DNA of 18,238 bases, from the IMG/VR virus record IMGVR_UViG_3300045988_164576, positions 1 to 18,238 of that record; one strand, written 5' to 3'. Made by a program: the position numbers and the translations under genes. The notes under the pieces were generated by a model, which made no database searches, was not told the DNA's origin, and saw only the letters and a program-made list of their open reading frames with translations. This DNA is from a virus. How positions within the stretch are numbered: the first letter of the stretch is position 1; every line of letters begins with the position of its first letter. Positions 221 to 12,712 of this stretch are shown here, piece after piece.

Positions 221-251
221 GCCCACGCACGAAGTGCGCAGGGCGTTTTTT
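221..251 (+). terminator. Intrinsic terminator just inside element A next to the att core
   Basis: GC-rich hairpin 221-244 (gccc/gggc and cgcac/gtgcg arms with a small internal loop, apical loop gaa), followed by T6 at 246-251. In a circularised element it would terminate the int/cargo transcript after attP. Confidence 0.45.
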
Positions 252-556
252 ATGTCCGAAGCATTAAATGTTGAGGGTGCAGGGCGCACAAAGCTGTGCT
301 GTGCGCCTTGCCTGCCCCCTGCCTGAGTGGCGGTCGCCAAAGTTTTGAACGCAGTGAAAAACTTTGTGTGACATCGCCACGCGCCCACCTCTGGGGTGCA
401 GGTCTGCACACTGTCGCAAGGCTGTGCGTTCCCTTTGTTCTGATTGTGTCATATCGGAGCTACAAACAAGCACCGCTTCTCAACTTTAATCCGTAGTGGT
501 CAGCACTTTGTATCCTCGCCGTTTAGGCGACGGCTTGAAGTGTGGATTGTGATTTG

Positions 557-790
557 TTATCCGTCTTTGTCTTGGTTTATCTTTATGATGATTTGCCCTA
601 GTTTCACAAGCGTTTCATTCTGCTGTTTCAATAGTTCCGTTTGCTCCTTGTTCCTCTTTGAAAGATCATTAACAGTTTTGCAAAGGTCAAGAAATTTGCA
701 GATTAGATAAATAATAAGCAAAAAGATTAACGCATCTATGATAATTCGTCCTATAAGTATATATGCTAAAGTCTTGTCTAAACCAAACAT
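557..790 (-). CDS. Small membrane protein (one N-terminal TM segment plus a charged coiled-coil-like tail), co-transcribed with the regulator; function unknown
   Basis: 77-aa ORF starting one nt after the regulator stop (taaATG). It has a hydrophobic stretch IIIDALIFLLIIYLI. It is a homolog of 11719-11955 in element B (KEQTELLKQQNETLV vs EKQTELLRQIQQNTV), in the same position relative to the regulator. Confidence 0.6.
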   Translation of the reverse strand: MFGLDKTLAYILIGRIIIDALIFLLIIYLICKFLDLCKTVNDLSKRNKEQTELLKQQNETLVKLGQIIIKINQDKDG

Positions 791-1138
791 TTATTTCTCC
801 TTAATTTTTACAACAGCGCTATTATTATTCTGCTGTGTTATGTTGTATTTGCTGTTACTGTCTGCTTTGTAGCCTATTCCCCTTTTGTCATTCGTCAGTC
901 CTGCTATATAATCAATACTCACTTTATAAAATTTTGCTAACTGTATAACTTTTTCAAATGGGATAGGATATTCACCTGTTTCCCACCTACTATATTGCTT
1001 TTGAGAAGTGTCAAGAATTTTCGCTATCATGCTTTGATTTAGTTCCATATCCTCTCTTAAATCTCTAAGTCTTTGATAATAATTAATAAAAATCACCTCA
1101 CTTATTTGTTTATTTATACAAATTATATCATAGTACAT
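791..1138 (-). CDS. XRE-family helix-turn-helix transcriptional regulator (CI/Cro-like repressor); start codon uncertain
   Basis: The stretch LRDLREDMELNQSMIAKILDTSQKQYSRWETGEYPIPFEKVIQLAKFYKVSIDYIAG is a typical HTH_3 pattern. The first ATG (1138) lies upstream of the best minus-strand -10 (1127-1132). The real start is therefore probably downstream, near the GAGGTG at 1094-1099. Confidence 0.8.
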   Translation of the reverse strand: MYYDIICINKQISEVIFINYYQRLRDLREDMELNQSMIAKILDTSQKQYSRWETGEYPIPFEKVIQLAKFYKVSIDYIAGLTNDKRGIGYKADSNSKYNITQQNNNSAVVKIKEK

Positions 1139-1205
1139 AATTGTTCTATTGACAATAGTACAAAAATGGGGTATATTATATATGTCGGTAGTACATTATT
1201 GTACT
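1127..1205. promoter_or_regulatory. Divergent face-to-face promoters with TAGTACA operator repeats (element A immunity switch)
   Basis: Plus strand: TTGACA 1149-1154, 17-nt spacer, TATATT 1172-1177. Minus strand: TTGTCA (1150-1155) , 17-nt spacer, TATGAT (1127-1132), so the two -35 boxes overlap. TAGTACA occurs at 1131-1137, 1156-1162 and 1189-1195. The last copy is part of the perfect palindrome AGTACAttatTGTACT at 1190-1205. Confidence 0.55.
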
Positions 1206-1219
1206 AAGTCCTCGAACAT

Positions 1220-1367
1220 AAAGATAACTACGATTAAATCGGTGAATGACGACAGCCTGAAACGGAAAAGTCTCGAATGGTAGGTAGTAGCCGTGAACGT
1301 GTGCATAATAGGTAGCACTCTATGAAACTTTCTTAGAGTTTTGGCACTAAAGAAGCCACCGGGTAAG
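1220..1367 (+). ncRNA. Conserved structured non-coding element, copy 1 (leader RNA or ssDNA-functional element; family not recognised)
   Basis: 148 nt with only 6 substitutions outside one hairpin loop relative to 12334-12474, although the flanking promoters and downstream genes differ. All three forward frames contain stops. The hairpin ACTCTA/TAGAGT (1317-1322 / 1334-1339) keeps its stem while the loop is 11 nt here and 4 nt in copy 2. Confidence 0.45.
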
Positions 1368-1445
1368 TATCTGTTTATCTTATGTTTATTATCACAAATT
1401 TAAAGGCACGAGGAAAAGCCGAAAAACCTCAGAAAGGAAAAAAAC

Positions 1446-1763
1446 ATGAAAACAACTATCGTAGGCTGGACAAAAAAGAAAGCATTTAACGGAGTTATAG
1501 AGGGCAAGCAGATAAACAGCCCTGAAAAGGTCGTCTTTCAGCTTCTGCAGGAAGTTGATAACCCCGACTGTCATGGAAAAATGGTCGATACACTGAAAAT
1601 ACCGACCGAAAATGCAATCAGACTTAACGGAAATTCTGAGGATTTCAATAAGCTTCTCGGCTGTGATGTAATGCTGAACTATCAGATTTTTAACGGACGT
1701 TCTCAGCTTGTTGATATCACCGTAATCAATGCAGACGGAACACTTCACCGCAACACAAAATAA
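1446..1763 (+). CDS. Hypothetical protein, possibly a gpV-like ssDNA-binding protein
   Basis: 105-aa ORF, the first gene of the rightward operon and immediately upstream of the coat-like gene, as in Ff phages. It shows weak similarity to the positionally equivalent 8086-8361 (e.g. VMLNY vs VNINY). The functional guess rests on position and size only. Confidence 0.5.
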   Translation: MKTTIVGWTKKKAFNGVIEGKQINSPEKVVFQLLQEVDNPDCHGKMVDTLKIPTENAIRLNGNSEDFNKLLGCDVMLNYQIFNGRSQLVDITVINADGTLHRNTK

Positions 1764-1817
1764 TTAGCGGTGAAACCGCTGTTATAAAAATTTAATAAGA
1801 AAGGAGTTTTGCTAATA

Positions 1818-1973
1818 ATGGAAGCTGTAACAACAATGCTTAGTAATGCCGTTACTGTTTTTGGTTCTTGTTGGGACGCTATGACAAGCAACGTACCTAT
1901 TGCAATTCTTGTAGGTCTGTCTCTTCTCGGCTCTGGTGCAGGACTTTTCGCAAAGTTCAGACACGCTGTATAA
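1818..1973 (+). CDS. Major coat protein-like (pVIII-like), 51 aa
   Basis: Not in the ORF track because it is under 60 aa. AAGGAG RBS at 1801-1806, ATG at 1818. Sequence MEAVTTMLSNAVTVFGSCWDAMTSNVPIAILVGLSLLGSGAGLFAKFRHAV has a central hydrophobic helix and a basic C-terminus. It shares the W-x-x-MTSN-P motif with 8379-8558. A terminator follows. Confidence 0.65.
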   Translation: MEAVTTMLSNAVTVFGSCWDAMTSNVPIAILVGLSLLGSGAGLFAKFRHAV

Positions 1974-1989
1974 GCAAAACCATTTACAT

Positions 1990-2026
1990 AAGCGGAGTAA
2001 TTCAAATTGCTCCGCTTAATTTTTTT
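1990..2026 (+). terminator. Intrinsic terminator after the coat-like gene
   Basis: Perfect 8-bp stem AAGCGGAG / CTCCGCTT (1990-1997 / 2010-2017) followed by a T-rich run ending at 2026. Confidence 0.6.
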
Positions 2027-2043
2027 GAAAGGAAGTTGATAAA

Positions 2044-3798
2044 TTGAGAAAAAAGATTAAGCAAGTGTTGTGTATGATCTCTGCACTTGTTGTGATGATA
2101 TGTTGTGCTGTTCCTGCATTCGCTTTAAAGCAGTCTGATGGTTCTGGTGGTATGAAACTTTTTATTGATATGGCGTTGAAAAAAATAAATTCTGACTTGG
2201 GTTTTACACCCGATTCATATATAGCCTTTTATTCGCCTAACCGCAAAGAGTACTCTCTTATATATCTTGTTCCTGACACTGTTCAAAAATTTTACCTTAA
2301 TTTGAGCGGCGGTGATATAGATACTTTGAATCAATCACAATTTTATATTTCAAATTATCATCGTCATTCTGATGACAACAAAACATATCGGTATGTTTAT
2401 CGCTATAATGATAAAAATCAACTTGTATTTAAAGCTCAATCTAGTCTTTTTGAATTTTCTGCCAATATAGGTGATATATCCAGTGTTAGTTGCGGTGTTG
2501 CTATGCACGTTGGTGTCGATTCTGATAATGGTGCTGATACCTATGTTTATTATCATAATGCTAAGGTTTATGATTGGTCTAACCCTGATAAAGATGTAAC
2601 CCCTACAGACCCCACCGTTGTTCCTGCTCCGTTTACTGTTACATATACACCTGAACTTTCATTGAATATGCAAAATAAAATTTACTATCCGTCAAAGGGT
2701 GGTGCTAATGCTGATGAAAATGGACTTGTAGCAGCTGAAAATAATAATATAAACCTTGATATAAAGCTTTCACCTGAGTTTTTAAAAACGTTCAATGAAA
2801 AAGACTTAGGAAAAGCTTACGGCTCTGGCACTTATGCCGTTTTATGTTGTCTTTCAAAAAATCTTCTTAACGCTGGTGATGATCTACAACGTTTCTTTGA
2901 TGAAGATGTTGTGCTTTATGCAATGAACCATGACGGCAATTACTACAAGGGTCAAGATGATGAAAAAATTAAGTCTGACGGCTCTTCTTCTGACGATTTG
3001 AATAGTAATGATACTGTTGATACTTTTGAGCCGTATTTAACATTATATCAAGGTCGAACGCCTATTTATACTATTCCTCGTGACGGCAAGATTACTGTAT
3101 CTTTTGATCTCACTTCTATTGATTATAAAACACATGGTCTTACTGATGATAGCAAGCTTTATGTTAATGTTATCGGTGTATTTGTAAAGAATAACGGTCA
3201 TGTTACTCCTCAGAATGGTGAAAAAACAGAAGATACAAATTCTTCAACGTGGCTCGGCTCGTATGCCTATCAAGAAGATTTTACAAACCTTAAGACGTGT
3301 GAGAAGATTGATGATTTTGTAAAGTCCGTTGATGAAGAAACAGGCAAGCCTGAAACATTCAAGGCTTATCGTGTTTATTCTGTTATTTCAGACCCTTTCT
3401 CTTATGAGAAGTTTCCTGATTATGTACCTAAAGTATATAAAGACAAGGACGGAAATACTTATAATCCCTCGACTACAAAGCTTAAAGACTTGTGTAATAT
3501 ACCGCCGTCAAAGGTCACTGACGTTGACCTTGCTAAGGGTTCAGATGGTGTTATAAATGATGGTTCATATATGCAACCTGATGATTATAACAAATATCTT
3601 GATAAGAAAAAAATTAATGCAAATTTCGGCTCTGTTGATTTCACGGATATAAAATCTATATTCAGTACAACGGGTACATATTGGGATTTTCTCACCGCCG
3701 CTCTTTCTTGTTTGCCGTCATGGTTTTATGCTGTGTTCTCTGCATGGTTTGTGCTGTTCTTAGCTATTGCGCTTATCAAGCTTGTTTTACCTACGTGA
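2044..3798 (+). CDS. pIII-like adsorption / minor coat protein (signal peptide plus C-terminal membrane anchor)
   Basis: TTG start 8 nt after AAAGGAAG. The N-terminus MRKKIKQVLCMISALVVMICCAVPAFA looks like a signal peptide. The C-terminus has a hydrophobic anchor (WFYAVFSAWFVLFLAIALIKLVL). It is a homolog of 8627-10177, with conserved ends and a divergent middle. Confidence 0.7.
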   Translation: MRKKIKQVLCMISALVVMICCAVPAFALKQSDGSGGMKLFIDMALKKINSDLGFTPDSYIAFYSPNRKEYSLIYLVPDTVQKFYLNLSGGDIDTLNQSQFYISNYHRHSDDNKTYRYVYRYNDKNQLVFKAQSSLFEFSANIGDISSVSCGVAMHVGVDSDNGADTYVYYHNAKVYDWSNPDKDVTPTDPTVVPAPFTVTYTPELSLNMQNKIYYPSKGGANADENGLVAAENNNINLDIKLSPEFLKTFNEKDLGKAYGSGTYAVLCCLSKNLLNAGDDLQRFFDEDVVLYAMNHDGNYYKGQDDEKIKSDGSSSDDLNSNDTVDTFEPYLTLYQGRTPIYTIPRDGKITVSFDLTSIDYKTHGLTDDSKLYVNVIGVFVKNNGHVTPQNGEKTEDTNSSTWLGSYAYQEDFTNLKTCEKIDDFVKSVDEETGKPETFKAYRVYSVISDPFSYEKFPDYVPKVYKDKDGNTYNPSTTKLKDLCNIPPSKVTDVDLAKGSDGVINDGSYMQPDDYNKYLDKKKINANFGSVDFTDIKSIFSTTGTYWDFLTAALSCLPSWFYAVFSAWFVLFLAIALIKLVLPT

Positions 3799-3806
3799 GG
3801 TGAATT

Positions 3807-3971
3807 ATGGATATAATACATGGTATTGAATTAGTTTTTAAATTCCTGATGAACTGTATGTCTTATACGTTTCCATTTGGCAAATACAGTTTTACTCTCG
3901 GTTCGGCTATTATAGGCGGTATGCTTTTATCAATCAGCTTGACTTTATTATATTTTATGCTTAGAAAGTAG
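3807..3971 (+). CDS. Small membrane protein (minor virion/assembly protein candidate), 54 aa
   Basis: GAGGTGA RBS, ATG at 3807. Sequence MDIIHGIELVFKFLMNCMSYTFPFGKYSFTLGSAIIGGMLLSISLTLLYFMLRK. It is a homolog of 10188-10355 (G-x-x-SFT-x-G-x-x-I-x-G motif) in the same position after the pIII-like gene. Confidence 0.6.
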   Translation: MDIIHGIELVFKFLMNCMSYTFPFGKYSFTLGSAIIGGMLLSISLTLLYFMLRK

Positions 3972-3978
3972 GTTTATT

Positions 3979-4053
3979 ATGTTAGTAAATATTGTTTTAT
4001 TTGTCCTCGTTGCTCTTATGGTCCTTTCTCTTGTATGGCTCGTTAGGAGGTAG
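3979..4053 (+). CDS. Possible 24-aa hydrophobic peptide (pVII/pIX-like size class)
   Basis: The sequence MLVNIVLFVLVALMVLSLVWLVRR is almost entirely hydrophobic. Its 3' end contains the AGGAGG RBS of the next gene. There is no clear RBS of its own and no equivalent at this position in element B. Confidence 0.3.
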   Translation: MLVNIVLFVLVALMVLSLVWLVRR

Positions 4054-4057
4054 AAAA

Positions 4058-4294
4058 ATGCTTAACTTGGTTTTGTTTATACTCGTTGTCTGCTTTATGG
4101 TTTGTACTATAAGCGGTGTTATAGGTTTCTTCACTGACCTTAGAAACTTTAAAGCTGAACATGAGTTCAGCGGAAACAGAAAACAGCTTATAGAGTTTCT
4201 TATGTTCGGTGAAGATGTTGAAATAAAAGCCGTTCCTGCGGTTGAAACTGATGATTGTGAGGTGAACGATAATGAAAGTACACATAGTGTTTGA
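4058..4294 (+). CDS. Small membrane protein with an N-terminal TM segment and acidic tail
   Basis: ATG at 4058 follows AGGAGG (4045-4050), so the ORF-track start at 3992 is probably too far upstream. It is a homolog of 10368-10613 (GVIGFFTDLRNFKAEHEFSGNRKQLIEFL vs GVLTFFIDIHAFKSEKDLSLPRKRLIEAL). Confidence 0.65.
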   Translation: MLNLVLFILVVCFMVCTISGVIGFFTDLRNFKAEHEFSGNRKQLIEFLMFGEDVEIKAVPAVETDDCEVNDNESTHSV

Positions 4295-4481
4295 TGAAAA
4301 TAACCCATTTTTTCAGCTTTTGAAGTCAATGGGCTGTGATCTCTCGCAAGAAGTCATGAATAGATATGACGCTTTGCTCCTCGGCATGGCATTTATATTC
4401 GCTGTGGTTATGCTTTGTATCTTCTGCAAGTTCTTTTATAATGTGATGATACGCATGACACGTTGTGCAAGTGCTGTGTAG
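4272..4481 (+). CDS. Small membrane protein, 69 aa
   Basis: GAGGTGA RBS upstream. It is a homolog of 10607-10813 (motifs QLLK-x-x-GCDL and YN-x-MIR) and has a central hydrophobic segment. Confidence 0.6.
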   Translation: MKVHIVFDENNPFFQLLKSMGCDLSQEVMNRYDALLLGMAFIFAVVMLCIFCKFFYNVMIRMTRCASAV

Positions 4482-4491
4482 GTGATTTGTT

Positions 4492-5286
4492 ATGATTATA
4501 TTTGACTACATAAAACAAATACCGCCCTTTATCACCTATGAGGTATATGACCACCTTTTTGGTGCATACTTCAATAATTCCGCTATCTTTCAAGGTTGGG
4601 GCATACATCTTTATACCGGTAAATTCGGAACAGGTAAAACCTCAACCCTTGCTCAGATAGCATATAACTATTGCGTGCGTTATCCTCAGTTGTCTATACT
4701 TACAAATATCAATCTTCAAAACTTCCCTGAGTGGACGAATATTTATAAGCTTAATTCCGCACAAGATATCCTGCACGCTCCTAAGAATTGTATAGTCGTA
4801 ATTGATGAGATAGGCACTATCTTCAATTCACGAGATTTCTCAGGTGGTAAAAGAGCCGTCTCTAAACCGCTTTTTCAGCACCTTTGTCAATGTAGAAAGC
4901 GCAAAATGATGATACTTGCTACAGTGCAACGATTTAATCTACTTGATAAACAGATACGAGATATAACGGCTACAGTGTCAACGTGCCGTGCTACATTCCG
5001 TCACCCTTATACACGTCTTATTAAGGTTAAAACCTATGATATAGACGAGTATGAAGCGTATACGGAGAATAAGTCATATATGCCGAAAAAGCTTTACAGC
5101 CGTTTGTATTTGCAGACTAATCAGAGTCGACAGCTATATGATACTTCTCAGCTTGTAGATAATATGCTTGATAAGGAGTACATCAGCGACACGGAAATAC
5201 TTGCCAATCGTGGAGTAGATGTCACAAGTGACATCATGCACGATAGAAAGACAAGCAGAAACCTGCGAAAAAGGCGTGGCGTATAG
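4492..5286 (+). CDS. Zot / pI-like P-loop morphogenesis ATPase (inovirus hallmark)
   Basis: Walker A is GKFGTGKTS and Walker B is IVVIDEIG. The pattern P-loop ... ILTNINL ... VIDE is typical of the Zot family. By eye it is roughly two-thirds identical to 10891-11688, making it the most conserved protein pair between the two elements. Confidence 0.75.
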   Translation: MIIFDYIKQIPPFITYEVYDHLFGAYFNNSAIFQGWGIHLYTGKFGTGKTSTLAQIAYNYCVRYPQLSILTNINLQNFPEWTNIYKLNSAQDILHAPKNCIVVIDEIGTIFNSRDFSGGKRAVSKPLFQHLCQCRKRKMMILATVQRFNLLDKQIRDITATVSTCRATFRHPYTRLIKVKTYDIDEYEAYTENKSYMPKKLYSRLYLQTNQSRQLYDTSQLVDNMLDKEYISDTEILANRGVDVTSDIMHDRKTSRNLRKRRGV

Positions 5287-5358
5287 CCACGAGCGACCGC
5301 AGGGGCGAGCGCTTGCGCCGCCCTGCGGTGCGTGTGGCTATTACTTGATATTAGCCAC
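5284..5358 (+). other. Putative plus-strand rolling-circle origin of element A: GC-rich long hairpin plus a second hairpin with a phiX174/pC194-type nick motif in its loop
   Basis: TAGCCAC occurs at 5284-5290 and 5352-5358, with its complement GTGGCTA at 5334-5340. An imperfect GC-rich hairpin spans 5285-5340. A 7-bp stem 5334-5340 / 5352-5358 has the loop ttACTTGATAT, so ACTTGATATTA spans 5343-5353. This matches 11 nt of the phiX174 origin CAACTTG|ATATTAATAAC and contains the CTTGATA core of pC194-family origins. Confidence 0.6.
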
Positions 5359-5394
5359 AAAAAGCACTCACCTAATAAATGGGAGTTGATATAA

Positions 5395-6396
5395 ATGTCC
5401 CTAAAAATGTCTTCTAAAGAGGTCAAGTGCAATACAAAGATAAAGGAATATCGTGACGGCAGTTACACTATAACACGTTCTGATCGACACATATTTAAAG
5501 ACCCTGCATTTGAGTATCACTGCAAGCATGAGCATAGTATTGACGAACGTTCAAGACAAGAGCAACTTAAAACGGCTCGTGAAAATTACATATGTTATTT
5601 TGAGTATGAGGACGAAAACGGAAACATAATGCTTGATATGCTTGATACTCGTAAGTTTAAAGATAAGCAGTCACAAAGCGGTGAAGTTCGTTCCGATAGT
5701 GTTCAAAGAGCAAAGCAAAGTATCTTTGATATAGTTTATCAAAATGATTGGAAATACTTCCTTACTATTACCTTTAATGGCGATAACCTTGACCGCACAA
5801 ACCCTAAAGAAGTCATAAAGCCTTTGAAAAAATGGCTTGAAAATGCAGTTAGTAGAAAAGGGCTTAAATATATCTTAGTTCCTGAGTATCACAAAAAAGG
5901 CGGTATACATTGCCACGCCCTTATAAACGATTGTGACTTTAAGTTCGTTGATAGTGGTACACGTCTTGTTAAGGGTCATGACAAGCCCCTTAAAATAGAT
6001 ACTATAAAGCGCCTGCATATATGTGATAAACTCGGCTGTGATATATCTGATTTGCCTGTTGTGTATAACGTGTCTGATTGGCGTTATGGTTTCTCAACCG
6101 CTATTCAGACTTACGGACAAATGTCTAATTTAGCTTTCTATGTCACTAAGTACATAACAAAGGACGTAAAGAAGATATTCGGCAAATTCTTCTGGAGTAG
6201 CAAGAACATTGTCCGCAAAACTAAAGAGATCTTTTGCAATTCAGACTTTAAAGACGATTTGCCGATAGTTTCTCCCCCTCGTGCTAATGTCTGTTATCAG
6301 TATGAAAGTAGTTTCACCTTTTCAAGTCAAGTCGAAAAGAACTGCAATGATATACTTCAATATCTTAAAGAGAATGGAAATGATGATGTCCTATGA
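5395..6396 (+). CDS. Rolling-circle replication initiator, phiX174 gpA-like HUH superfamily (two-tyrosine type)
   Basis: Motif 1 is FLTITF, motif 2 is GGIHCHALI (H-hydrophobic-H) and motif 3 is FYVTKYITKD (compare phiX174 gpA YVAKYVNK, with two Tyr three residues apart). GGGAG RBS at 5381-5385. Confidence 0.75.
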   Translation: MSLKMSSKEVKCNTKIKEYRDGSYTITRSDRHIFKDPAFEYHCKHEHSIDERSRQEQLKTARENYICYFEYEDENGNIMLDMLDTRKFKDKQSQSGEVRSDSVQRAKQSIFDIVYQNDWKYFLTITFNGDNLDRTNPKEVIKPLKKWLENAVSRKGLKYILVPEYHKKGGIHCHALINDCDFKFVDSGTRLVKGHDKPLKIDTIKRLHICDKLGCDISDLPVVYNVSDWRYGFSTAIQTYGQMSNLAFYVTKYITKDVKKIFGKFFWSSKNIVRKTKEIFCNSDFKDDLPIVSPPRANVCYQYESSFTFSSQVEKNCNDILQYLKENGNDDVL

Positions 6397-7283
6397 TTTT
6401 TAAAGAATGGTTTGAGATGTTCTATAACGCATACTGCGTTGATGTGATAGCCTATGATTGCTATAAGGACTATTACTATATAAATCAAAAACACTTCGGT
6501 TATATAGCCGATATGGAGCTTCTGAGCGTAAAGCCTATTGATATTCAGAATTGTCTTAAATCCACCCTATCTTACAGTAATGACCGCCAAAGACGTTCAT
6601 ATTTCTTACTTAAACGTGTATTCCGTGAAGCTATAGTTAATGGTTATTGTGACAAAAACCCTTGCGACTATATTAAACCTCCAAAACGTATAAAAAAAGA
6701 AGCTGAATATTTTAGCCCCGATAATCTCGTACATCTCTTTGATGATGATAGTAGAGTTTGCAGAATGTTTCAGCTTGACTTGTAGACAGGTCTCCGCCGT
6801 GGTGAACTTCTCGCTCTTAGTTGGGATAACATTGACCTTGATAACAGATATCTTAAAGTTTGTCAGACACTCGTACATACTTCATGCGGTGATAGGATTG
6901 TACAGACCACAAAATCTCGCCGTGATAGGCTTATCCCCTTGCATAGTAATGCAATAGCTATTCTTCATCAGATACGCTCTCAGGACGTTTCAGACGGCTT
7001 TCTGTTCGTTTCACCTATAACGCATACAGTAATATCTCTTAGACGTTATAACAGGCTCTATAGAACGTTCTATGAGCAACAAAAAACAAAGTATCCTGAT
7101 TTACAGTATCTCACCCCGCACAAGCTTAGACATAGCTATGCTACGTATCTTATTCAGTGCGGTGCAGATATTGAAACCCTTAGAGCATTGCTCGGACACG
7201 TTGATATAACAACTACCCAGCGTTATGTACATAGCAATTTTAATCAGATGTGCAAGGCTGTGAATAATCTCAAATTTGAATAA
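6393..7283 (+). pseudogene. Tyrosine integrase interrupted by a single in-frame TAG (6783-6785)
   Basis: ORFs 6393-6785 and 6939-7283 are in the same frame, and the frame is open throughout apart from the single TAG. Translation across it reads MFQLDL*TGLRRGELLALSWDNIDL, against MFRFECLTGLRREEILALRWENVDL in the intact integrase 14713-15621. The TAG aligns with a TTG Leu codon there. The catalytic HKLRHSY, LLGH and RYVH motifs are present downstream. Confidence 0.8.
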
Positions 7284-7305
7284 TAAAGGAGTTTTTAAAA
7301 TGAAA
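7248..7305 (+). repeat. 58-nt direct repeat, copy 1 (integrase 3' end, RBS and first codons of the downstream gene)
   Basis: atgtgcaaGgctgtgaataatctcaaatttgaataataaaggagTttttaaaatgaaa is repeated at 7507-7564 with 2 mismatches. Confidence 0.9.
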
Positions 7306-7506
7306 AGTAAATTTTATACGGAGCAAAAACATAAAGAAACTATGAATCTCGCTGATTTGCTCGAAGGTTCTATAAATCGTATGTGCGTTACTGCTGATAT
7401 GGATGAATTACGTCGACTTCTGATGAATTCAATGTGTAGCCTGTCTGAGTTGTATATCGTCAATCGTAAAAAACTCAAGGAGCGTTTTTCTCAAAATGAT
7501 TTCTGA
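7300..7506 (+). CDS. Hypothetical small protein (cargo gene 1), 68 aa
   Basis: ATG at 7300 follows AAAGGAG, so the ORF-track start at 7276 lies inside the integrase 3' end. No recognisable motifs. It is bracketed by the 58-nt direct repeats. Confidence 0.55.
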   Translation: MKSKFYTEQKHKETMNLADLLEGSINRMCVTADMDELRRLLMNSMCSLSELYIVNRKKLKERFSQNDF

Positions 7507-7564
7507 ATGTGCAAAGCTGTGAATAATCTCAAATTTGAATAATAAAGGAGCTTTTAAAATGAAA
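7507..7564 (+). repeat. 58-nt direct repeat, copy 2
   Basis: See 7248-7305. This copy contains an orphan duplicate of the last integrase codons (MCKAVNNLKFE stop), the RBS and ATGAAA. Confidence 0.9.
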
Positions 7565-7729
7565 GAGTTTAATTTTTGGTGTAAAGAAAATACTGACCAT
7601 GGCGAATGTGCCGATAAGGTATGCGATTATGATAACTGTTGTTGTTATGCCCACTGTGAGGAATGTATATTTTATCTTACAGATTCTCCTGCTTGTGAGA
7701 ATTGCTCTGTACCTTGTTATGATGATTAA
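7559..7729 (+). CDS. Cysteine-rich small protein (11 Cys in 56 aa), cargo gene 2
   Basis: ATG at 7559 follows AAAGGAG. Sequence MKEFNFWCKENTDHGECADKVCDYDNCCCYAHCEECIFYLTDSPACENCSVPCYDD has no signal peptide and an acidic character. Confidence 0.55.
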   Translation: MKEFNFWCKENTDHGECADKVCDYDNCCCYAHCEECIFYLTDSPACENCSVPCYDD

Positions 7730-7759
7730 TATTTACTTGTGAAAATCTTTAGCACTATT

Positions 7760-7853
7760 CAACTAAAAAAACGGCTCTCCACAATAGCGGAAAGCCGTTT
7801 TTACATATTGGTCGGAGTGACCGGATTTGAACCGACGACCTCTACCACCCCAA
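7760..7853. repeat. Direct repeat DR2 (94 nt): second displaced tRNA-Pro 3' 45 nt (7809-7853) plus a terminator copy; junction between elements A and B
   Basis: It matches 127-220 except for A7 vs A6 and T5 vs T6 runs. The terminator stem is 7772-7780 / 7789-7797. Confidence 0.85.
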
Positions 7854-7879
7854 ACACAAATAGAAAATTTTAGGATAAT

Positions 7880-7914
7880 AACCGCCGTATTTTGTTTAAA
7901 TATCGGCGGTTTTA
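7880..7914 (+). terminator. Terminator-like hairpin just inside element B next to the att core
   Basis: Stem ACCGCCG / CGGCGGT (7881-7887 / 7904-7910), extendable through AT pairs with one bulge, followed by tttatt. It is positionally equivalent to 221-251 in element A. Confidence 0.4.
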
Positions 7915-7976
7915 TTGTGCATAGAAATATTACAAAAAGTTTAGTTTGTTAGTGCGGTATTTTAACAAATTATACA

Positions 7977-8027
7977 TTGACAAGAAATATTACAAGTATT
8001 TACGCCATTTTCATAATGTTATATAAT
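7977..8027 (+). promoter_or_regulatory. Candidate promoter region for the element B morphogenesis operon
   Basis: TTGACA at 7977-7982 lacks a good -10 at 17 nt. Alternative -10 boxes are CATAAT (8012-8017) and TATAAT (8022-8027). The 13-nt direct repeat AGAAATATTACAA occurs at 7923-7935 and 7983-7995. An inverted repeat TGTAGTT/AACTACA lies at 8033-8051, just downstream. Confidence 0.35.
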
Positions 8028-8085
8028 ATAACTGTAGTTAAGAGAACTACAACAAATTATTAATTGATTTTGGAGGTATGACAAG

Positions 8086-8361
8086 ATGTATATTGTCAAA
8101 GGTTTTAAGAAAAACAGTGGAGTTATCAAGGAAACTGGCAGAAAGTGGGAAAACTACACACTCTTTTGTCTTAAGGAAAGTAAGGACGAGAGTGTGACAG
8201 GATATGAAACACATATTGCTAAAGTGTCAACAAAGGTCTTGCAGGAAACTTTCCCTAACTCTGCGGCTATCATTGATAGCCATGTAAATATTAATTATGG
8301 CGTTCGTACTTTTGGCGGTGCTGAAAAGCTTGTTGTCGAAAGTATAGACATAATCAAGTAA
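8086..8361 (+). CDS. Hypothetical protein, possibly a gpV-like ssDNA-binding protein
   Basis: 91-aa ORF with a GGAGG RBS, the first gene of the operon and upstream of the coat-like gene. It is a weak homolog of 1446-1763. Confidence 0.5.
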   Translation: MYIVKGFKKNSGVIKETGRKWENYTLFCLKESKDESVTGYETHIAKVSTKVLQETFPNSAAIIDSHVNINYGVRTFGGAEKLVVESIDIIK

Positions 8362-8378
8362 GAAAGGAGTTTAAGAGT

Positions 8379-8558
8379 ATGCCTATTACAGTTCTTACAG
8401 GTGAAACATCAACTATTACTTCTGGTGTTTCAACAATCACTGACCTTGTATCACAGGTTTGGACACTTATGACAAGCAATCCGCTTGTTATGGTCTTTGT
8501 AGGTGCATCACTCCTCGGTGTTGCAATCGGCGTTATCAGAAAGCTTACACATAAGTAA
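8379..8558 (+). CDS. Major coat protein-like (pVIII-like), 59 aa
   Basis: AAAGGAG RBS, ATG at 8379. Sequence MPITVLTGETSTITSGVSTITDLVSQVWTLMTSNPLVMVFVGASLLGVAIGVIRKLTHK has a hydrophobic helix, a basic C-terminus and the shared W-x-x-MTSN-P motif. A terminator follows. Confidence 0.65.
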   Translation: MPITVLTGETSTITSGVSTITDLVSQVWTLMTSNPLVMVFVGASLLGVAIGVIRKLTHK

Positions 8559-8575
8559 GCCGTATATCTCGCTTG

Positions 8576-8610
8576 TGCGGGGCGGTCAATCCGCTCCGCA
8601 TTTTTATTTT
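8576..8610 (+). terminator. Intrinsic terminator after the coat-like gene
   Basis: 9-bp GC-rich stem 8577-8585 / 8591-8599 (one G-U), loop tcaat, then tttttatttt. Confidence 0.65.
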
Positions 8611-8626
8611 AGAAAGGAGAAAAAAT

Positions 8627-10177
8627 ATGAAAACAAAACTTCGGCGGTTTGTGTCAATCCTCTCCGCCATGGTTCTTATGGTCTGCTGTGCCGTTCCTGC
8701 GTTTGCTGATGATATCGGCTCTTCTTACACTACATGGAATGATACCATTAAACAAAATGTTTTTTCGTGTATTCCTGAGAGTGATAAAACCGATTACTAT
8801 ACTGTTATTGCTGCCCCTTACGGCAGTGGTTTTACTTATACTATTATATTTTGTAAATCTAGTACTTCTGTGACTTATTTCGGCAGTAATCTTCATTGCT
8901 ATGTATCAAAGGCTGATTATAATGCGTTTGCGTGTGTCCTCGTTACCTCAGAAAATAAACCTCTCTATGATGATACAGCTACCGATTGGCGGTCTGAAAA
9001 TGGCGATTACTTCGACCATGAGCCTTATGATTATTCAAGCGGTCAAGCCAAGGTAATATATAGTAACGTTCCTGTTTTAAATTGGGAAGATAAGAAAACA
9101 CCTGCATGGAAAGACCCTAACGCCCCACCAGTTCCTTTTACTGTCGATTATTCCCCTGCTCTCTCTGAGGGCATGAGCCGCAAGGGAACTCTTGTCGCTC
9201 CTGGTGCAAGCAACAACGGACAGGAAATTGAAAGCAATGGTCTTAACGTCCGTGTCACACTAACGGACGAATTTTTAAAACTCCGTGACAGCTATGATGA
9301 ACTTAAAGATTATACATATGAATTTGTATGTTATATTACTACTTCCCCCCCTGAAAAGTCGTCTTATGAAGAAAGCGTTAAAAACGCTGTTTATACTTCA
9401 TTGGACTATGGCAAATATATGTATACTACAAGCGGCGTTGTTGATGATGTTACGGACGATAATAAAGAGCCTACAGAATGGATAAAGGCAGAGGGCATAA
9501 ATGCTGGCTATATAATTGGCAAGGGTGGCGAGGTTAAGAATGTTACTATCAATCTTGAAAACCTCGACAGCTCACAGTTTACCGCCGATACAAAGCTTTA
9601 TATCGTGGTATATGGTCGCTTGACTTCTCTTTCAGTGCCGACCCCTGATTACTTCGACCTCGACAATCAAGGTTATCTTTGCAATCAAGGTTCTTTGAAT
9701 ACAAAGCAGATTGTAACAGTAAATGCCGACCCCGAAACAGGCGAGGGAATAGATGTTGTAATGCCTGATTACTATTGTGTAACGTCAACGGCGTTCAATT
9801 ATAAGGACTATCCCGAATACAAGCCGAAAATATTCAAGAATGGTGCTGAAATGGATACAAACAAGCCGTTTACTGATTATCTTGATAAGAAGTTGACCCC
9901 TGATTATATGTATGATTATGATATGGATAAAAAGGGCGAAAGTGGTCTTGCTCCTGACGATTTCAAGAAATATGAGGAACAAAAAAATCTTGATAAAAAT
10001 TTCGGTTCGTTTGATTTTGGTTTGGATAGTATTAAATCAGTGTTTGACGGCTCGTCCGACTTCTTCAAGTTTTTAACTGCAAGTATAGGTATCTTGCCCA
10101 CAACGTTCTTAACTATCCTTATCGCTTTCTTTGTTGTCATGTTGGCAATTTGCGTTGTTAAATGGGTATTGAAGTAG
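8627..10177 (+). CDS. pIII-like adsorption / minor coat protein (signal peptide plus C-terminal anchor)
   Basis: ATG at 8627 follows AAAGGAG, whereas the ORF-track start at 8573 lies inside the terminator hairpin. The N-terminus is MKTKLRRFVSILSAMVLMVCCAVPAFA and the C-terminal anchor is LTILIAFFVVMLAICVVKWVL. Conserved segments shared with 2044-3798 include P-x-PFTV-x-Y-x-P and NFGS-x-DF. Confidence 0.7.
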   Translation: MKTKLRRFVSILSAMVLMVCCAVPAFADDIGSSYTTWNDTIKQNVFSCIPESDKTDYYTVIAAPYGSGFTYTIIFCKSSTSVTYFGSNLHCYVSKADYNAFACVLVTSENKPLYDDTATDWRSENGDYFDHEPYDYSSGQAKVIYSNVPVLNWEDKKTPAWKDPNAPPVPFTVDYSPALSEGMSRKGTLVAPGASNNGQEIESNGLNVRVTLTDEFLKLRDSYDELKDYTYEFVCYITTSPPEKSSYEESVKNAVYTSLDYGKYMYTTSGVVDDVTDDNKEPTEWIKAEGINAGYIIGKGGEVKNVTINLENLDSSQFTADTKLYIVVYGRLTSLSVPTPDYFDLDNQGYLCNQGSLNTKQIVTVNADPETGEGIDVVMPDYYCVTSTAFNYKDYPEYKPKIFKNGAEMDTNKPFTDYLDKKLTPDYMYDYDMDKKGESGLAPDDFKKYEEQKNLDKNFGSFDFGLDSIKSVFDGSSDFFKFLTASIGILPTTFLTILIAFFVVMLAICVVKWVLK

Positions 10178-10187
10178 GGGGTGCAAT

Positions 10188-10355
10188 ATGGATTGGTTTT
10201 CACTCATGAAGTCGCTTTTTGTTTCAATTCAACACTTAATGTGTTTGCGTATTCGTTTCGGTGAATTTAGTTTTACAGTAGGTGCAATGATTGTTGGATT
10301 GTTTGTTATATCCTGCTCCGTTGCTCTGCTAAAATATCTTTTTCACAATACATAA
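10188..10355 (+). CDS. Small membrane protein, 55 aa (homolog of 3807-3971)
   Basis: GGGGGTG RBS-like sequence, ATG at 10188. Sequence MDWFSLMKSLFVSIQHLMCLRIRFGEFSFTVGAMIVGLFVISCSVALLKYLFHNT. Confidence 0.6.
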   Translation: MDWFSLMKSLFVSIQHLMCLRIRFGEFSFTVGAMIVGLFVISCSVALLKYLFHNT

Positions 10356-10367
10356 GGAGTTGTTAAA

Positions 10368-10613
10368 ATGGTTGCAATATTAAAATTATTCGTCCTGTCA
10401 CTAATAGTCATTTTGGCTATTAGTGCGGTTCTTGGCGTGTTGACGTTCTTCATAGATATCCACGCTTTTAAATCTGAAAAAGACTTGTCGCTCCCTCGTA
10501 AACGGCTTATTGAAGCATTATACGAGGAACAGGAACTCAAAAAGAAAGCGGCTGAACAGCCGCAGGACACACCACAGAGCGACAAGCAAGAGCCTGAGAA
10601 AGAGGGGTGGTAA
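10368..10613 (+). CDS. Small membrane protein with an N-terminal TM segment and acidic/charged tail (homolog of 4058-4294)
   Basis: AAGGAG RBS. 81 aa, with a hydrophobic N-terminus and a charged C-terminus. Confidence 0.65.
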   Translation: MVAILKLFVLSLIVILAISAVLGVLTFFIDIHAFKSEKDLSLPRKRLIEALYEEQELKKKAAEQPQDTPQSDKQEPEKEGW

Positions 10614-10813
10614 ATGTGTTATATGATGTTCAAAACGCCTGCTATCAATTGCTAAAGCTTCTTGGCTGTGACCTCGCCGCCATTGATGTTATAAAGACGT
10701 GGAAACAGTTCGGCGTGTTGTGCTTGGAATTTGTCTTTGCCTGCATTATGCTGTTTCTGCTGTGGAAAATGCTATACAATGCTATGATACGATTTTTCAA
10801 TCCTCGAAGGTGA
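10607..10813 (+). CDS. Small membrane protein (homolog of 4272-4481); start uncertain (GTG at 10607 or 10616)
   Basis: It carries the motifs YQLLKLLGCDL and YNAMIR. The RBS-like AGAGGGG ends at 10607, which favours the GTG at 10616. Confidence 0.55.
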   Translation: MVNVLYDVQNACYQLLKLLGCDLAAIDVIKTWKQFGVLCLEFVFACIMLFLLWKMLYNAMIRFFNPRR

Positions 10814-10818
10814 TAGCC

Positions 10819-10890
10819 GTGTGGACTATTCTTGCTTTGTACATTATTTCTGTTATACTTTATTTTATTTTTAATTGGGGTGATAAATAA
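10819..10890 (+). CDS. Possible 23-aa hydrophobic peptide (pVII/pIX-like size class)
   Basis: GTG at 10819 lies 5 nt after GAAGGTGA. The sequence (M)WTILALYIISVILYFIFNWGDK has its stop abutting the Zot ATG (taaATG). A degenerate copy is present in the relic at 12713-12880. Confidence 0.35.
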   Translation: MWTILALYIISVILYFIFNWGDK

Positions 10891-11688
10891 ATGGTTCTTT
10901 TCGATTACTTCGTACGCCTGCCGTCCTTGGCGGCTTATGTAGCTTATGATAAGGCTACAAGCCTTTATTTCAACTGGTCGCAAATATTCAACGGTTGGGG
11001 TATACACCTTTTTGTCGGCAAGTTCGGTGCAGGCAAAACCTCGCTTATGGTCGCACAAGCCTATGATTTGTGTGTGAAATACCCTCAGCTACACATATTA
11101 ACTAATATCAATATCAAAAACTTTCCCGACTATACGGAGATACTCCCCTTGAACACTGCACAAGATATCCTCAACGCTCCTAAAAACACGCTTGTACTTA
11201 TTGACGAGATAGGCACAATATTCAATAGCCGTGACTTTTCGGGCGGTAAATGTGCCGTTCCTAAACCGCTATTTCAGCATTTGTGCCAATGCCGTAAACG
11301 GCGTATGATGATATATGCAACAGTACAACGCTTCAACTTGCTTGACAAACAAATTAGAGATATTACCGCAGACGTGACCGCTTGCCATACGCATTTCAAA
11401 CACCCATTTTGTCGTATACAGACAGGTTACACCTACGATATAGAGGAATACGAACTATACAGTGAAAACAAGGCGTATACGCCTGTTCAGATGTATAACC
11501 GCACATACTTACAGACAAATAAACGCCGTCAGCTCTATGATACATCACAGCTTGTCACGAATATGCTTTCAAAAGAGTATCTCAGTGATGAAGAAATACT
11601 CGCCAATCGTGAGGGAATAGAGCCTAACACACAGCCACTTGACCGAAAGCAGAAGAAATCTATTCGCAAGCGGAAAAATGCTTGGTAA
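10891..11688 (+). CDS. Zot / pI-like P-loop morphogenesis ATPase
   Basis: Walker A is GKFGAGKTS and Walker B is LVLIDEIG. It is colinear with 4492-5286 over its full length. Confidence 0.75.
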   Translation: MVLFDYFVRLPSLAAYVAYDKATSLYFNWSQIFNGWGIHLFVGKFGAGKTSLMVAQAYDLCVKYPQLHILTNINIKNFPDYTEILPLNTAQDILNAPKNTLVLIDEIGTIFNSRDFSGGKCAVPKPLFQHLCQCRKRRMMIYATVQRFNLLDKQIRDITADVTACHTHFKHPFCRIQTGYTYDIEEYELYSENKAYTPVQMYNRTYLQTNKRRQLYDTSQLVTNMLSKEYLSDEEILANREGIEPNTQPLDRKQKKSIRKRKNAW

Positions 11689-11691
11689 TGA

Positions 11692-11733
11692 AACAACTCG
11701 CAGTGGTTGCCGTGAGGCTCACTGCGAGTTGTT
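11692..11733. other. Perfect 14-bp-stem hairpin between convergent genes (terminator or ssDNA structural signal)
   Basis: AACAACTCGCAGTG (11692-11705) pairs perfectly with CACTGCGAGTTGTT (11720-11733), with a 14-nt loop. There is no clean U-tract on either strand. The 3' arm overlaps the end of the minus-strand ORF 11719-11955. Confidence 0.5.
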
Positions 11734-11955
11734 GTTGTCTTTGTTGTTAATCATCAGCAGATTGCTATTAACTGTGTTCTGCTGTATCTGTCTTAATAAT
11801 TCCGTTTGTTTCTCTTCTTCTCGTCTTATCGCTTTGCTGTTTCCTGCTATTTCAAATATAGCACATATCAACAGTATCACAATGACTATTTTCACGATAA
11901 GTATAACAACGCTTATTGACGTCATAGCCTCCAACGCTGTGAATATTTCTTCCAT
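11719..11955 (-). CDS. Small membrane protein co-transcribed with the regulator (homolog of 557-790)
   Basis: 78 aa with TM segment VVILIVKIVIVILLICAIF and a charged tail containing EKQTELLRQIQQNTV. The start lies 4 nt after the regulator stop. Confidence 0.6.
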   Translation of the reverse strand: MEEIFTALEAMTSISVVILIVKIVIVILLICAIFEIAGNSKAIRREEEKQTELLRQIQQNTVNSNLLMINNKDNNNSQ

Positions 11956-11959
11956 ACTC

Positions 11960-12202
11960 TCACCCCTCGTCCGTATGTGTTTTTATTACAATGTGGCTGT
12001 CCTCTGCTGATTTTATCTCATCAGTGATAACCTTTTTGAGATATCCCGCTTTTGACAAGCCTAACTCTTTTGCTCGGTCTTTTATCATTTGGTTAAAGCC
12101 CTTTGGTGCGTCAAACTGCACTTTCTCCAAATTTTCAGCGTCCCACTTTGCATTTGCTCGTTTTCGTGCGTCTGATACTGGCATTTCCTCACCTACTTTC
12201 AT
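11960..12202 (-). CDS. Ribbon-helix-helix (CopG/Arc-like) DNA-binding regulator; the start may be ATG 12184
   Basis: EKVQFDAPKGFNQMIKDRAKELGLSKAGYLKKVI fits a beta-strand, helix, helix RHH pattern. The second Met (12184) is preceded by AGGTGAGGA. The first ATG (12202) would sit at the predicted transcript 5' end, giving a leaderless mRNA. Confidence 0.6.
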   Translation of the reverse strand: MKVGEEMPVSDARKRANAKWDAENLEKVQFDAPKGFNQMIKDRAKELGLSKAGYLKKVITDEIKSAEDSHIVIKTHTDEG

Positions 12203-12209
12203 TAACTTA

Positions 12210-12321
12210 ATTATACAACACTTTCATAAAGCTGTCAATATGTACTGTATCGAGTACATAAAATATTAATATAAGCAATACACTTTGTTTACTTGACTTT
12301 GTACTCAATCGGGTGTATACT
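12210..12321. promoter_or_regulatory. Divergent promoters plus GTAC-core operators (element B immunity switch)
   Basis: Minus strand: TTGACA (12233-12238), 17-nt spacer, TATAAT (12210-12215). Plus strand: TTGACT 12293-12298, 17-nt spacer, TATACT 12316-12321. The palindrome ATGTACTgtatcgAGTACAT lies at 12240-12259. An extra TGTACT half-site lies at 12300-12305, inside the plus-promoter spacer. Confidence 0.6.
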
Positions 12322-12333
12322 TAATATAGACAA

Positions 12334-12474
12334 AAAGATAACTACGATTAAATCGGTGAATGACGACAGCCTGTAATGGAAAAGTCTCGAAAGGTAGGTA
12401 GTAGCCGTGAAAGTGAGCATAATAGGTAGCACTCTATTTTTAGAGTTTCGGCACTAAAGAAGCCACCGGGTAAG
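12334..12474 (+). ncRNA. Conserved structured non-coding element, copy 2
   Basis: 141 nt, nearly identical to 1220-1367 (see that entry). It again begins about 12 nt after a -10 box, but here it precedes a different gene (12528-12689) and lies mid-element. Confidence 0.45.
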
Positions 12475-12527
12475 GACCTGTTTTTCTTATTGTCTATCTT
12501 TAATCAAATTTGAAAGGAGTGAGGATA

Positions 12528-12689
12528 ATGCAGAACATGCCTACAGCTACAGAACTTGCGATAAAGTATGCAAAGCGTGAACAGCTTAGAATTATAATAG
12601 ACAAGGCTCTGAATATTCATGCTGATTGCGAATATGAAGCTTTATCAAAGCTGATTAACAAACTTGAACAAATGCTTGAAGAAGCATAA
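12528..12689 (+). CDS. Hypothetical small helical protein, 53 aa
   Basis: AAAGGAGTGAGG RBS, ATG at 12528. Sequence MQNMPTATELAIKYAKREQLRIIIDKALNIHADCEYEALSKLINKLEQMLEEA has no counterpart in element A. Confidence 0.55.
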   Translation: MQNMPTATELAIKYAKREQLRIIIDKALNIHADCEYEALSKLINKLEQMLEEA

Positions 12690-12712
12690 AAAAAATGTAG
12701 TCGGCAATCCGT

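Follow-up and report, generated by a model that had tools for sequence, protein, structure and literature searches.

An exchangeable, dispensable non-coding leader module shared by two tandem inovirus-like prophages

Introduction

Why should two neighboring prophages, whose nucleotide sequences otherwise align almost only in one gene, carry nearly the same stretch of non-coding DNA? The question arises in an 18,238-nt stretch of viral DNA (IMG/VR record IMGVR_UViG_3300045988_164576, hereafter the window). A preliminary description of this DNA had singled out a near-identical repeat, and had suggested for it either a leader RNA, such as one for processive antitermination, or a single-strand origin dependent on host RNA polymerase. 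Here we define the repeat, which we call X, follow its distribution among related phages and weigh the roles that it might have.

Results

Two tandem prophages share the non-coding segment X

The window holds two integrated inovirus-like (filamentous-phage) elements in tandem, adjoining tRNA-Pro(GGG) at 15646-15722 on the minus strand. The 3' part of this tRNA gene is repeated at 165-225, 7798-7858 and 15635-15695, and each prophage is bounded by one copy. The main features of the two elements are as follows.

About 226-7797: element 1, with XRE-type repressor, divergent promoter, 105-aa gene, 584-aa protein, Zot, G2P-type Rep and integrase
791-1138, minus strand: XRE-type repressor gene of element 1
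4492-5286: Zot-type assembly ATPase of element 1
5395-6396: G2P-type Rep of element 1
About 7859-15634: element 2, with 91-aa gene, 534-aa protein, Zot, 80-aa gene, promoter, 59-aa gene, SF3 Rep and integrase
10891-11688: Zot of element 2
Between Zot and the promoter in gene order, minus strand: 80-aa gene of element 2
13156-14355: Rep of element 2, with an SF3-helicase domain

The same tandem prophage pairs were seen again in many IMG/VR and metagenome contigs. An identical 37-nt hairpin with a T-run lies at 132-168 and 7766-7802, just outside two of the tRNA junctions. The integrase of element 1 is present as two separate ORFs, 6393-6785 (130 aa) and 6939-7283 (114 aa), about 150 nt apart; since contig L016 and other relatives align over this region with no large indel, either they share the split or the gene organization is unusual. 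At the end of element 1, two small ORFs in succession have their RBS and start within a 58-nt direct repeat (97%) at 7248-7305 and 7507-7564, and a 111-nt repeat (77%) inside element 2 links 10780-10890, upstream of Zot, with 12712-12822, downstream of the 59-aa gene. An Rfam match to the Staphylococcus sRNA S774 at 15781-15894 (54 bits, threshold 48) extends into the 5' part of tRNA-Met (15875-15951); the best-aligned block is tRNA sequence, and the match is probably an artefact of a model that includes such sequence. The heptamer CTTGATA occurs at 18 sites in the window compared with 3.3 expected from shuffles, mostly inside genes of both elements (for example at 2755, 3598, 4942, 5167, 5344, 5632 and 5641). 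Given this frequency, and because the sequence just upstream of a second element, Y (below), varies, we dropped the idea that X of element 1 had been inserted at a pC194/phiX-type nick site (CTTG/ATA).

Alignment of element 1 with element 2 by blastn returned X (E 1e-61), the Zot genes (68%), two short weak matches and nothing else. The repeat search placed the X copies at 1216-1323 and 12330-12437 (94%) and at 1330-1383 and 12437-12490 (91%), in agreement with MAFFT. The near-identical repeat reported at 1220-1367 amid diverged flanks is therefore real, although the homology reaches slightly further, from 1214 to 1392 and from 12328 to 12514, with about 94% identity overall and a less identical 3' end. 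Recounting the differences within 1220-1367 gave the same number of substitutions, six (1260, 1263, 1278, 1298, 1302 and 1342), and the MAFFT alignment likewise showed one replaced hairpin loop, 11 nt in one copy and 4 nt in the other, on a retained ACTCTA/TAGAGT stem. The two copies are defined here as follows.

1214-1392, plus strand: X allele A (copy 1), a non-coding leader cassette ahead of the first gene (105 aa) of element 1; no Rfam match
12328-12514, plus strand: X allele B (copy 2), the whole 5' UTR of element 2, beginning at the predicted transcription start and stopping shortly ahead of the RBS of the 59-aa gene; no Rfam match

X has stops in all six frames, as expected from its description as non-coding. 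The two alleles have no small plus-strand ORF in common, and a minus-strand ORF (1196-1318 and 12289-12432) was rejected as a gene, as its five substitutions bring four amino-acid changes and the C-termini differ. Consistent with the earlier remark that X resembles no known RNA family, Rfam covariance models gave no match at the gathering score; at E values up to 10 there was only noise, with 7.5-17.8 bits against thresholds of 40-84.

X occupies the predicted leader of the early transcript

The position of X is defined by the following elements.

1149-1177, plus strand: early promoter of element 1, TTGACA-17-TATATT, divergent from the XRE repressor gene
1190-1205, unstranded: operator-like palindrome AGTACATTATTGTACT, read from the sequence, between the -10 box and X copy 1
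12293-12321, plus strand: early promoter of element 2, TTGACT-17-TATACT, with X beginning 7 nt past the -10 box

AGTACA half-sites are also present on both sides of the -35 box of element 1. Both copies of X had been described as starting about a dozen nucleotides after the -10 box. This applies to copy 2, where TATACT ends at 12321 and X runs from 12328, but not to copy 1, which begins 38-39 nt past the -10 box (TATATT ends at 1177) and behind the operator-like palindrome. A spacing of 39 nt is found again in contig L006, behind a different, perfect promoter (12/12 match). The sigma-70 promoters upstream of X were detected by a program in all three cases, 7 nt away for copy 2 and 38-39 nt away for copy 1 and L006, and their location upholds the proposal that X forms part of the 5' leader of a repressor-controlled transcript.

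In all of the approximately 33 copies that we collected, X has the orientation of the downstream genes and lies between a repressor-controlled promoter and the first early gene. Its surroundings vary. Upstream are at least five unrelated immunity/promoter modules (promoter, operator and repressor), and downstream are at least four different sequences, namely the 105-aa gene, element Y, the 59-aa gene and an 85-aa ORF. The edges of allele B are fixed by leaders that lack X, one with the same promoter (L031:9930-10025) and one with the same first gene (L022:13350-13530). In these, X is replaced by a short leader of 37-50 nt whose limits are exactly the -10/start region (..ATATAG|) on one side and the RBS (|TGAAAGGAG) on the other, which implies that the exchanged unit is the 5' UTR itself.

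X occurs with several different Reps, repressors and SSBs, in support of the earlier view that it is independent of the phage Rep. It accompanies two unrelated Reps and is missing from phages whose G2P-type Rep is 92-99% identical; as element 2 also has an origin-like hairpin of its own, with the motif TAGTATTAC, X is not required by either Rep. A Rep-specific double-strand origin was rejected on these same grounds.

X is confined to one phage group and is optional within it

Copies of X were gathered by exact-pattern scans of IMG/VR, the GTDB genomes and the JGI metagenomes, and then with nhmmer. Two exact patterns gave the same 15 contigs from IMG/VR, one pattern gave 13 true contigs from the JGI metagenomes, all near-identical, and one pattern gave a single true match and two chance matches in the GTDB genomes. 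The only named-species genome carrying X is that of Hominimerdicola aceti (Oscillospiraceae). About 30 contigs carry the approximately 33 copies, among which there are 13 distinct sequences and effectively two alleles. Allele A, with the 11-nt loop, is found in phages with the G2P Rep, upstream of the 105-aa gene; allele B, with the 4-nt loop, is found in phages with the SF3 Rep, upstream of the 59-aa gene or the 85-aa ORF. All copies are 93-100% identical to those of the window and are confined to one phage group. A search with nhmmer --max revealed no diverged homologue in 149 related inovirus loci (1.6 Mb), including a third clade with 75% Zot identity; none was found in the scans of IMG/VR, the JGI metagenomes and the GTDB genomes or in the phage and plasmid collections, and no plasmid in PLSDB resembled X. 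Searching with a gapped pattern derived from helix P1 (below) returned six extra matches, all in unrelated GC-rich sequence, and a 60% match from lenient blastn in L141-L146 was set aside as spurious, since it falls inside a 551-aa gene. Further homologues had been sought for signs of covariation and wider conservation. The copies were indeed found, but they show no covariation in the core and no conservation other than the 93-100% identity noted above, a pattern that fits recent exchange rather than deep conservation.

Many relatives do without X. Among phages of the G2P type, the site upstream of the 105-aa gene holds Y only in about 29 contigs, X then Y in about 13, and X only in about seven, including the window. 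Among phages of the SF3 type, about 17 have only a Y-like element, downstream of Rep, four or five have both, about five have X only and five (L121, L125, L130, L132 and L147) have neither; these five ruled out the idea that every phage needs X or Y. One such relative is L016, which has Y instead of X and is 95-100% identical to the window over all aligned parts of element 1 (promoter 100%, 105-aa gene region 96.7%, 2604 to 7315 95.3%). The two differ by the exchange of X and Y and by about 480 nt inside the 584-aa gene that do not align. Since near-identical phages lack it, X cannot be an essential replication or packaging site; and since it is optional across phages, it needs no phage-specific partner.

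Predicted folding of X

As RNA, X is no more stable than shuffled sequence (z +0.88 for copy 1 and +0.59 for copy 2), in contrast to Y (z -4.5 as RNA and -6.3 as DNA). RNAalifold on the 13 variants predicted a nested series of helices, P0-P1-P2-P3, with 34 pairs, of which none showed a compensatory change and one a one-sided change. The predicted features, all on the plus strand, are listed here.

P0, copy 1: 5' strand 1214-1227, 3' strand 1375-1387; pair probability 0.84-0.91 with X folded alone
P0, copy 2: 5' strand 12328-12338, 3' strand 12485-12495; from folding of X alone and duplex energies
P1: UCGGUG 1239-1244 with CACCGG 1357-1362, in copy 2 12353-12358 with 12464-12469; invariant in 13/13 variants and so uninformative
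P2: 5' strand UAGUAGCCG 1285-1293, predicted partner 1342-1349; G1293 faces U (allele A) or C (allele B)
P3: hairpin ACUCUA/UAGAGU 1317-1339 with an 11-nt loop, in copy 2 12431-12446 with a 4-nt loop and the same stem
12467-12490: weak terminator-like hairpin CGGGU-AAGG-ACCUG with a U-run; the 5' arm overlaps the 3' strand of P1

Folding of X by itself pairs the first 11-14 nt with the last 11-13 nt at a probability of 0.8-0.9, giving P0. The changes at the two ends of alleles A and B are coordinated: a G-C pair in B is A-U in A, and a 1-nt deletion together with an A-to-T change shifts the register of the helix. MAFFT does not put this 1-nt indel in register, and P0 was judged by duplex energies. 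Matched ends gave -10.1 and -10.6 kcal/mol compared with -4.8 and -7.5 kcal/mol for mixed A/B ends, and about 1-2% of shuffled 3' strands equaled the matched ends. When the full UTR is folded, P0 is outcompeted by other pairings. P0 appears to be the sole evolutionarily supported structural feature of X, on the basis of a co-variation that comes from two alleles and so has no statistical power.

The helices proposed earlier, ACGG/CCGT at 1262-1265/1291-1294 and CGGTG/CACCG at 1240-1244/1357-1361, lie at the coordinates given for them. Fixed differences between A and B in predicted helices stay pairable on the plus strand through G.U pairs (G1293 with C or U; a CC, UC or UU arm opposite GG), and three rare single-variant changes break plus-strand pairing. 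In copy 2 the terminator-like hairpin (12467-12480) has 3 nt in common with the 3' strand of P1. Its 3' arm reads AUUUG, with three G.U pairs, in about half of the B copies, and there the hairpin is lost from the terminator scan; the scan detected no such hairpin in allele A.

Sequence diversity of X

Among 11 haplotypes carrying allele A and the 105-aa gene, X has 6/177 segregating sites (pi 0.010), compared with 29/106 (pi 0.099) at third codon positions of the adjacent 105-aa gene, 60-250 nt downstream, an approximately tenfold lower diversity. In a sliding profile, the next 900 nt or so downstream of X are about as uniform as X itself, and allele B and the 59-aa gene are equally diverse. 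Because the low diversity extends so far downstream, constraint on X is not demonstrated, and mosaic ancestry can explain its uniformity.

Element Y and candidate origins

Element Y, absent from both prophages of the window, was found at L016:88-245, L004:6566-6724 (minus strand), L003:758-916 (minus strand), L031:11972-12130 and about 60 other loci. It is predicted to form a three-way junction of about 160 nt closed by GTGTCCC/GGGACAC, with the strongly negative z scores given above for ssDNA and RNA. In 13 of the 52 predicted pairs both partners have changed with pairing retained, and substitutions disrupt none; three pairs fall in a stretch that is deleted in the variant sequences Y'. The orientation of Y is constant and its position varies: G2P phages have it upstream of the 105-aa gene, SF3 phages downstream of Rep. 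Rfam gave no match at E up to 1. On these properties, Y is a good candidate single-strand origin or packaging signal. Hairpins 2-3 of Y are overlapped by a 46-aa K/R-rich ORF, the end of which shares an ATGA with the start of the 105-aa gene (L016:160-305 and other Y leaders); the window keeps only its last 45 nt or so (about 1400-1448). The ORF is probably not conserved, with an early stop in the Y-like copy of SF3 phages.

In a 150-nt scan of the window as ssDNA (mean z -0.9), the strongly structured regions were 251-400, 5201-5400, 11651-11800 and 12851-13150 (z -4.3 to -6.9), and windows in X, at z +0.6 to +1.0, were among the least structured. Within element 1, plus-strand ssDNA is structured at 251-400 (z -5.7) and at 5201-5400 (z -5.6), just upstream of the G2P-type Rep, and these two regions are candidate origins or a packaging signal. 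The most structured ssDNA of the whole window is 12851-13000 (z -6.9) in element 2. Short direct repeats of the TTGTTGGAA and TTTCAATGA types at 12880-12970 precede a stem-loop at 13032-13062, GAAGTCGGGG-TATAGTATTAC-CCCCGACTTC, whose loop bears the CRESS/geminivirus-like nonanucleotide TAGTATTAC, about 100 nt upstream of the SF3-helicase Rep gene. This stem-loop region is probably the plus-strand origin of element 2.

Discussion

X is a real, discrete, non-coding module that is exchangeable and dispensable, belongs to no described family and has a narrow distribution. Its position, orientation, sharp boundaries, mosaic exchange, dispensability and the co-variation of its ends are observed. The reading that we tentatively prefer, with a probability of roughly 0.42, is that X is an exchangeable, optional 5'-UTR cassette that acts in cis on the early mRNA. 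X would be passed by recombination among a small group of temperate inoviruses whose prophages lie in tandem at tRNA-Pro in Hominimerdicola-like gut Clostridia. De-repression would lead to its transcription, in allele B as the opening 175 nt or so of the early mRNA and in allele A from about +35; we infer its transcription, its activity as RNA and not as DNA, and its effect alike. The ends of X may pair as P0 and close a loose, elongated fold, P0-P1-P2-P3, which could set message stability, early pausing or attenuation, or the start of translation of the first gene, and thereby tune the level at which the chronic-infection genes are expressed. Any partner would be a host factor, as X works beside several unrelated repressors, Reps and first genes.

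Of the two roles suggested in the preliminary description, a complementary-strand (single-strand) origin or packaging signal on the packaged plus-strand ssDNA, read by host RNA polymerase or the assembly machinery, now seems improbable. The single-strand origin (sso) cassettes of rolling-circle plasmids are of X-like size, have a fixed orientation, are exchanged as modules among Reps, and show host restriction and dispensability (PMC5703833), and X, at about 170 nt, resembles them in all these respects. The fixed orientation of X would be compatible with an orientation-dependent sso, and a transcribed element would look alike. Both prophages of the window lack the structured element Y that most relatives have, and P0 could form equally in ssDNA. 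Against this, X as ssDNA folds no better than shuffles on either strand (plus strand MFE -12.3 kcal/mol, z +0.37; minus strand -9.0 kcal/mol, z +0.59), and its windows are among the least structured while both elements have strong regions elsewhere. The ssoA motifs RSB (TTATGCCGAGAAAATTT) and CS-6 (TAGCGT) (PMC4598088) are missing from X: RSB had no match in the window with up to three mismatches allowed, and CS-6, searched as TAGCGW, had five matches in the window with none inside X. There is also no similarity to PLSDB plasmids, X is always found between promoter and RBS where the position of an sso is flexible, and phages with neither X nor Y exist. By analogy with the hallmarks in the review literature (PMC5703833), the sso role would fit Y much better. 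The other suggested role, a put-like leader RNA for processive antitermination, allowing read-through of terminators after the coat genes, we now hold to be very unlikely. X does lie directly past the promoter, and a strong intrinsic terminator (1989-2018) is found inside the operon of element 1. Relatives that lack X and are >95% identical from within the 584-aa gene onward nevertheless match the window across 1989-2018, compared as a region and not as the hairpin itself. In element 2, X heads the unit of the 59-aa gene, Rep and integrase, whereas the strong terminator at 8575-8601 follows another promoter (7999-8027) and belongs to a different transcription unit; X also has no stable two-stem structure and no Rfam match.

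Three further readings also compete with the cis-acting cassette. A discrete trans-acting sRNA of about 150 nt, ending at the weak hairpin and U-run, is highly improbable: allele B does have a terminator-like hairpin followed by UUUUUCUU, but this has only five pairs, one to three of them G.U, it was not detected in allele A or in the AUUUG variants, and the conserved 3' strand of P0 sits past the U-run. Antisense targets of X elsewhere in the window amounted to chance matches of 10-13 nt. That X is a MITE with terminal inverted repeats of 10-14 nt is barely credible. Its ends are inverted repeats and allele B has TA on both sides, but allele A lacks the TA duplication and no duplication is consistent, H. 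aceti has one copy by exact-match scan of the GTDB genomes, located in the prophage, all copies sit in leaders of inoviruses, and the sites without X show replacement and no clean empty site. The main and serious rival, although we consider it unlikely on balance, is that X has no function and is leader DNA gained recently, and once, by one inovirus lineage from the other through recombination between co-resident tandem prophages, persisting by hitch-hiking, with edges set by microhomology at the -10 box and the RBS. In keeping with this, the copies are 93-100% identical and effectively two alleles, the divergence between A and B (about 6%) lies inside the range within lineages (Rep genes 76-100% identical), other modules such as the 59-aa gene and Y are shuffled likewise, there is neither a fold signal nor core covariation, relatives lacking X are common and diversity is equally low for 900 nt downstream. 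What speaks against this rival is that both ends of X changed together with P0 kept, that the exchanged unit coincides with the UTR in several independent contexts, that segregating sites in X are few (6/177) beside the nearby third codon positions (29/106), and that the hairpin stem was kept despite the replacement of its loop.

A more novel reading would be that X is a new host-sensing leader RNA, riboswitch-like or bound by a host factor, in which P1 and the overlapping hairpin with its U-run are alternative conformations that decide, in these chronic and non-lytic phages, on full expression of the early operon after loss of the repressor. Different phages of one host would then acquire the cassette because it reads a host signal and not a phage signal. 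The overlap of P1 and the hairpin invites such a switch model, yet the hairpin is weak and variable, and we rate this reading as quite improbable.

If X does act on the early mRNA, filamentous phages of the gut would possess a non-coding regulatory cassette that moves between them whichever repressor or replication protein they carry. Such a portable module would give access to the tuning of chronic phage production in a group of human-gut Clostridia that is abundant but experimentally untouched. As it stands, X mainly documents fine-scale mosaicism in the leaders of these prophages, and the idea of a host-dependent single-strand origin moves from X to Y, in relatives.

X can be compared with four kinds of known system. 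Like the mosaic modules and morons of temperate phages, it is a segment of high identity between unrelated flanks, present or absent among near-identical genomes; unlike them, it codes for nothing, brings neither a promoter nor a terminator and fills the UTR exactly. With ssoA, ssoU, ssoT, ssoW and the Ff minus-strand origin it shares the character of a non-coding cassette of about 160-180 nt that is orientation-fixed, host-specific, dispensable and found across unrelated Reps, but it lacks extensive ssDNA structure, RSB and CS-6 and is tied to the promoter-RBS interval. Phage leader RNAs (HK022 put, nut/boxB and the immunity RNAs P4 CI, P1 c4 and N15 CA) resemble X in lying at the very start of a temperate-phage early transcript, independent of repressor type, and differ from it in sequence or covariance match, stable stem-loops, complementary targets and a consistent downstream terminator in the same unit, all of which X lacks. 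The riboswitch and attenuator 5' UTRs of Bacillota differ in that the terminator of X is very weak and variable, that X shows no covariation and that it is found in one phage group upstream of unrelated genes; the resemblance is that of a 5' UTR, about 175 nt long, which may be closed by a helix whose 3' strand overlaps a hairpin and U-run and is followed by the RBS.
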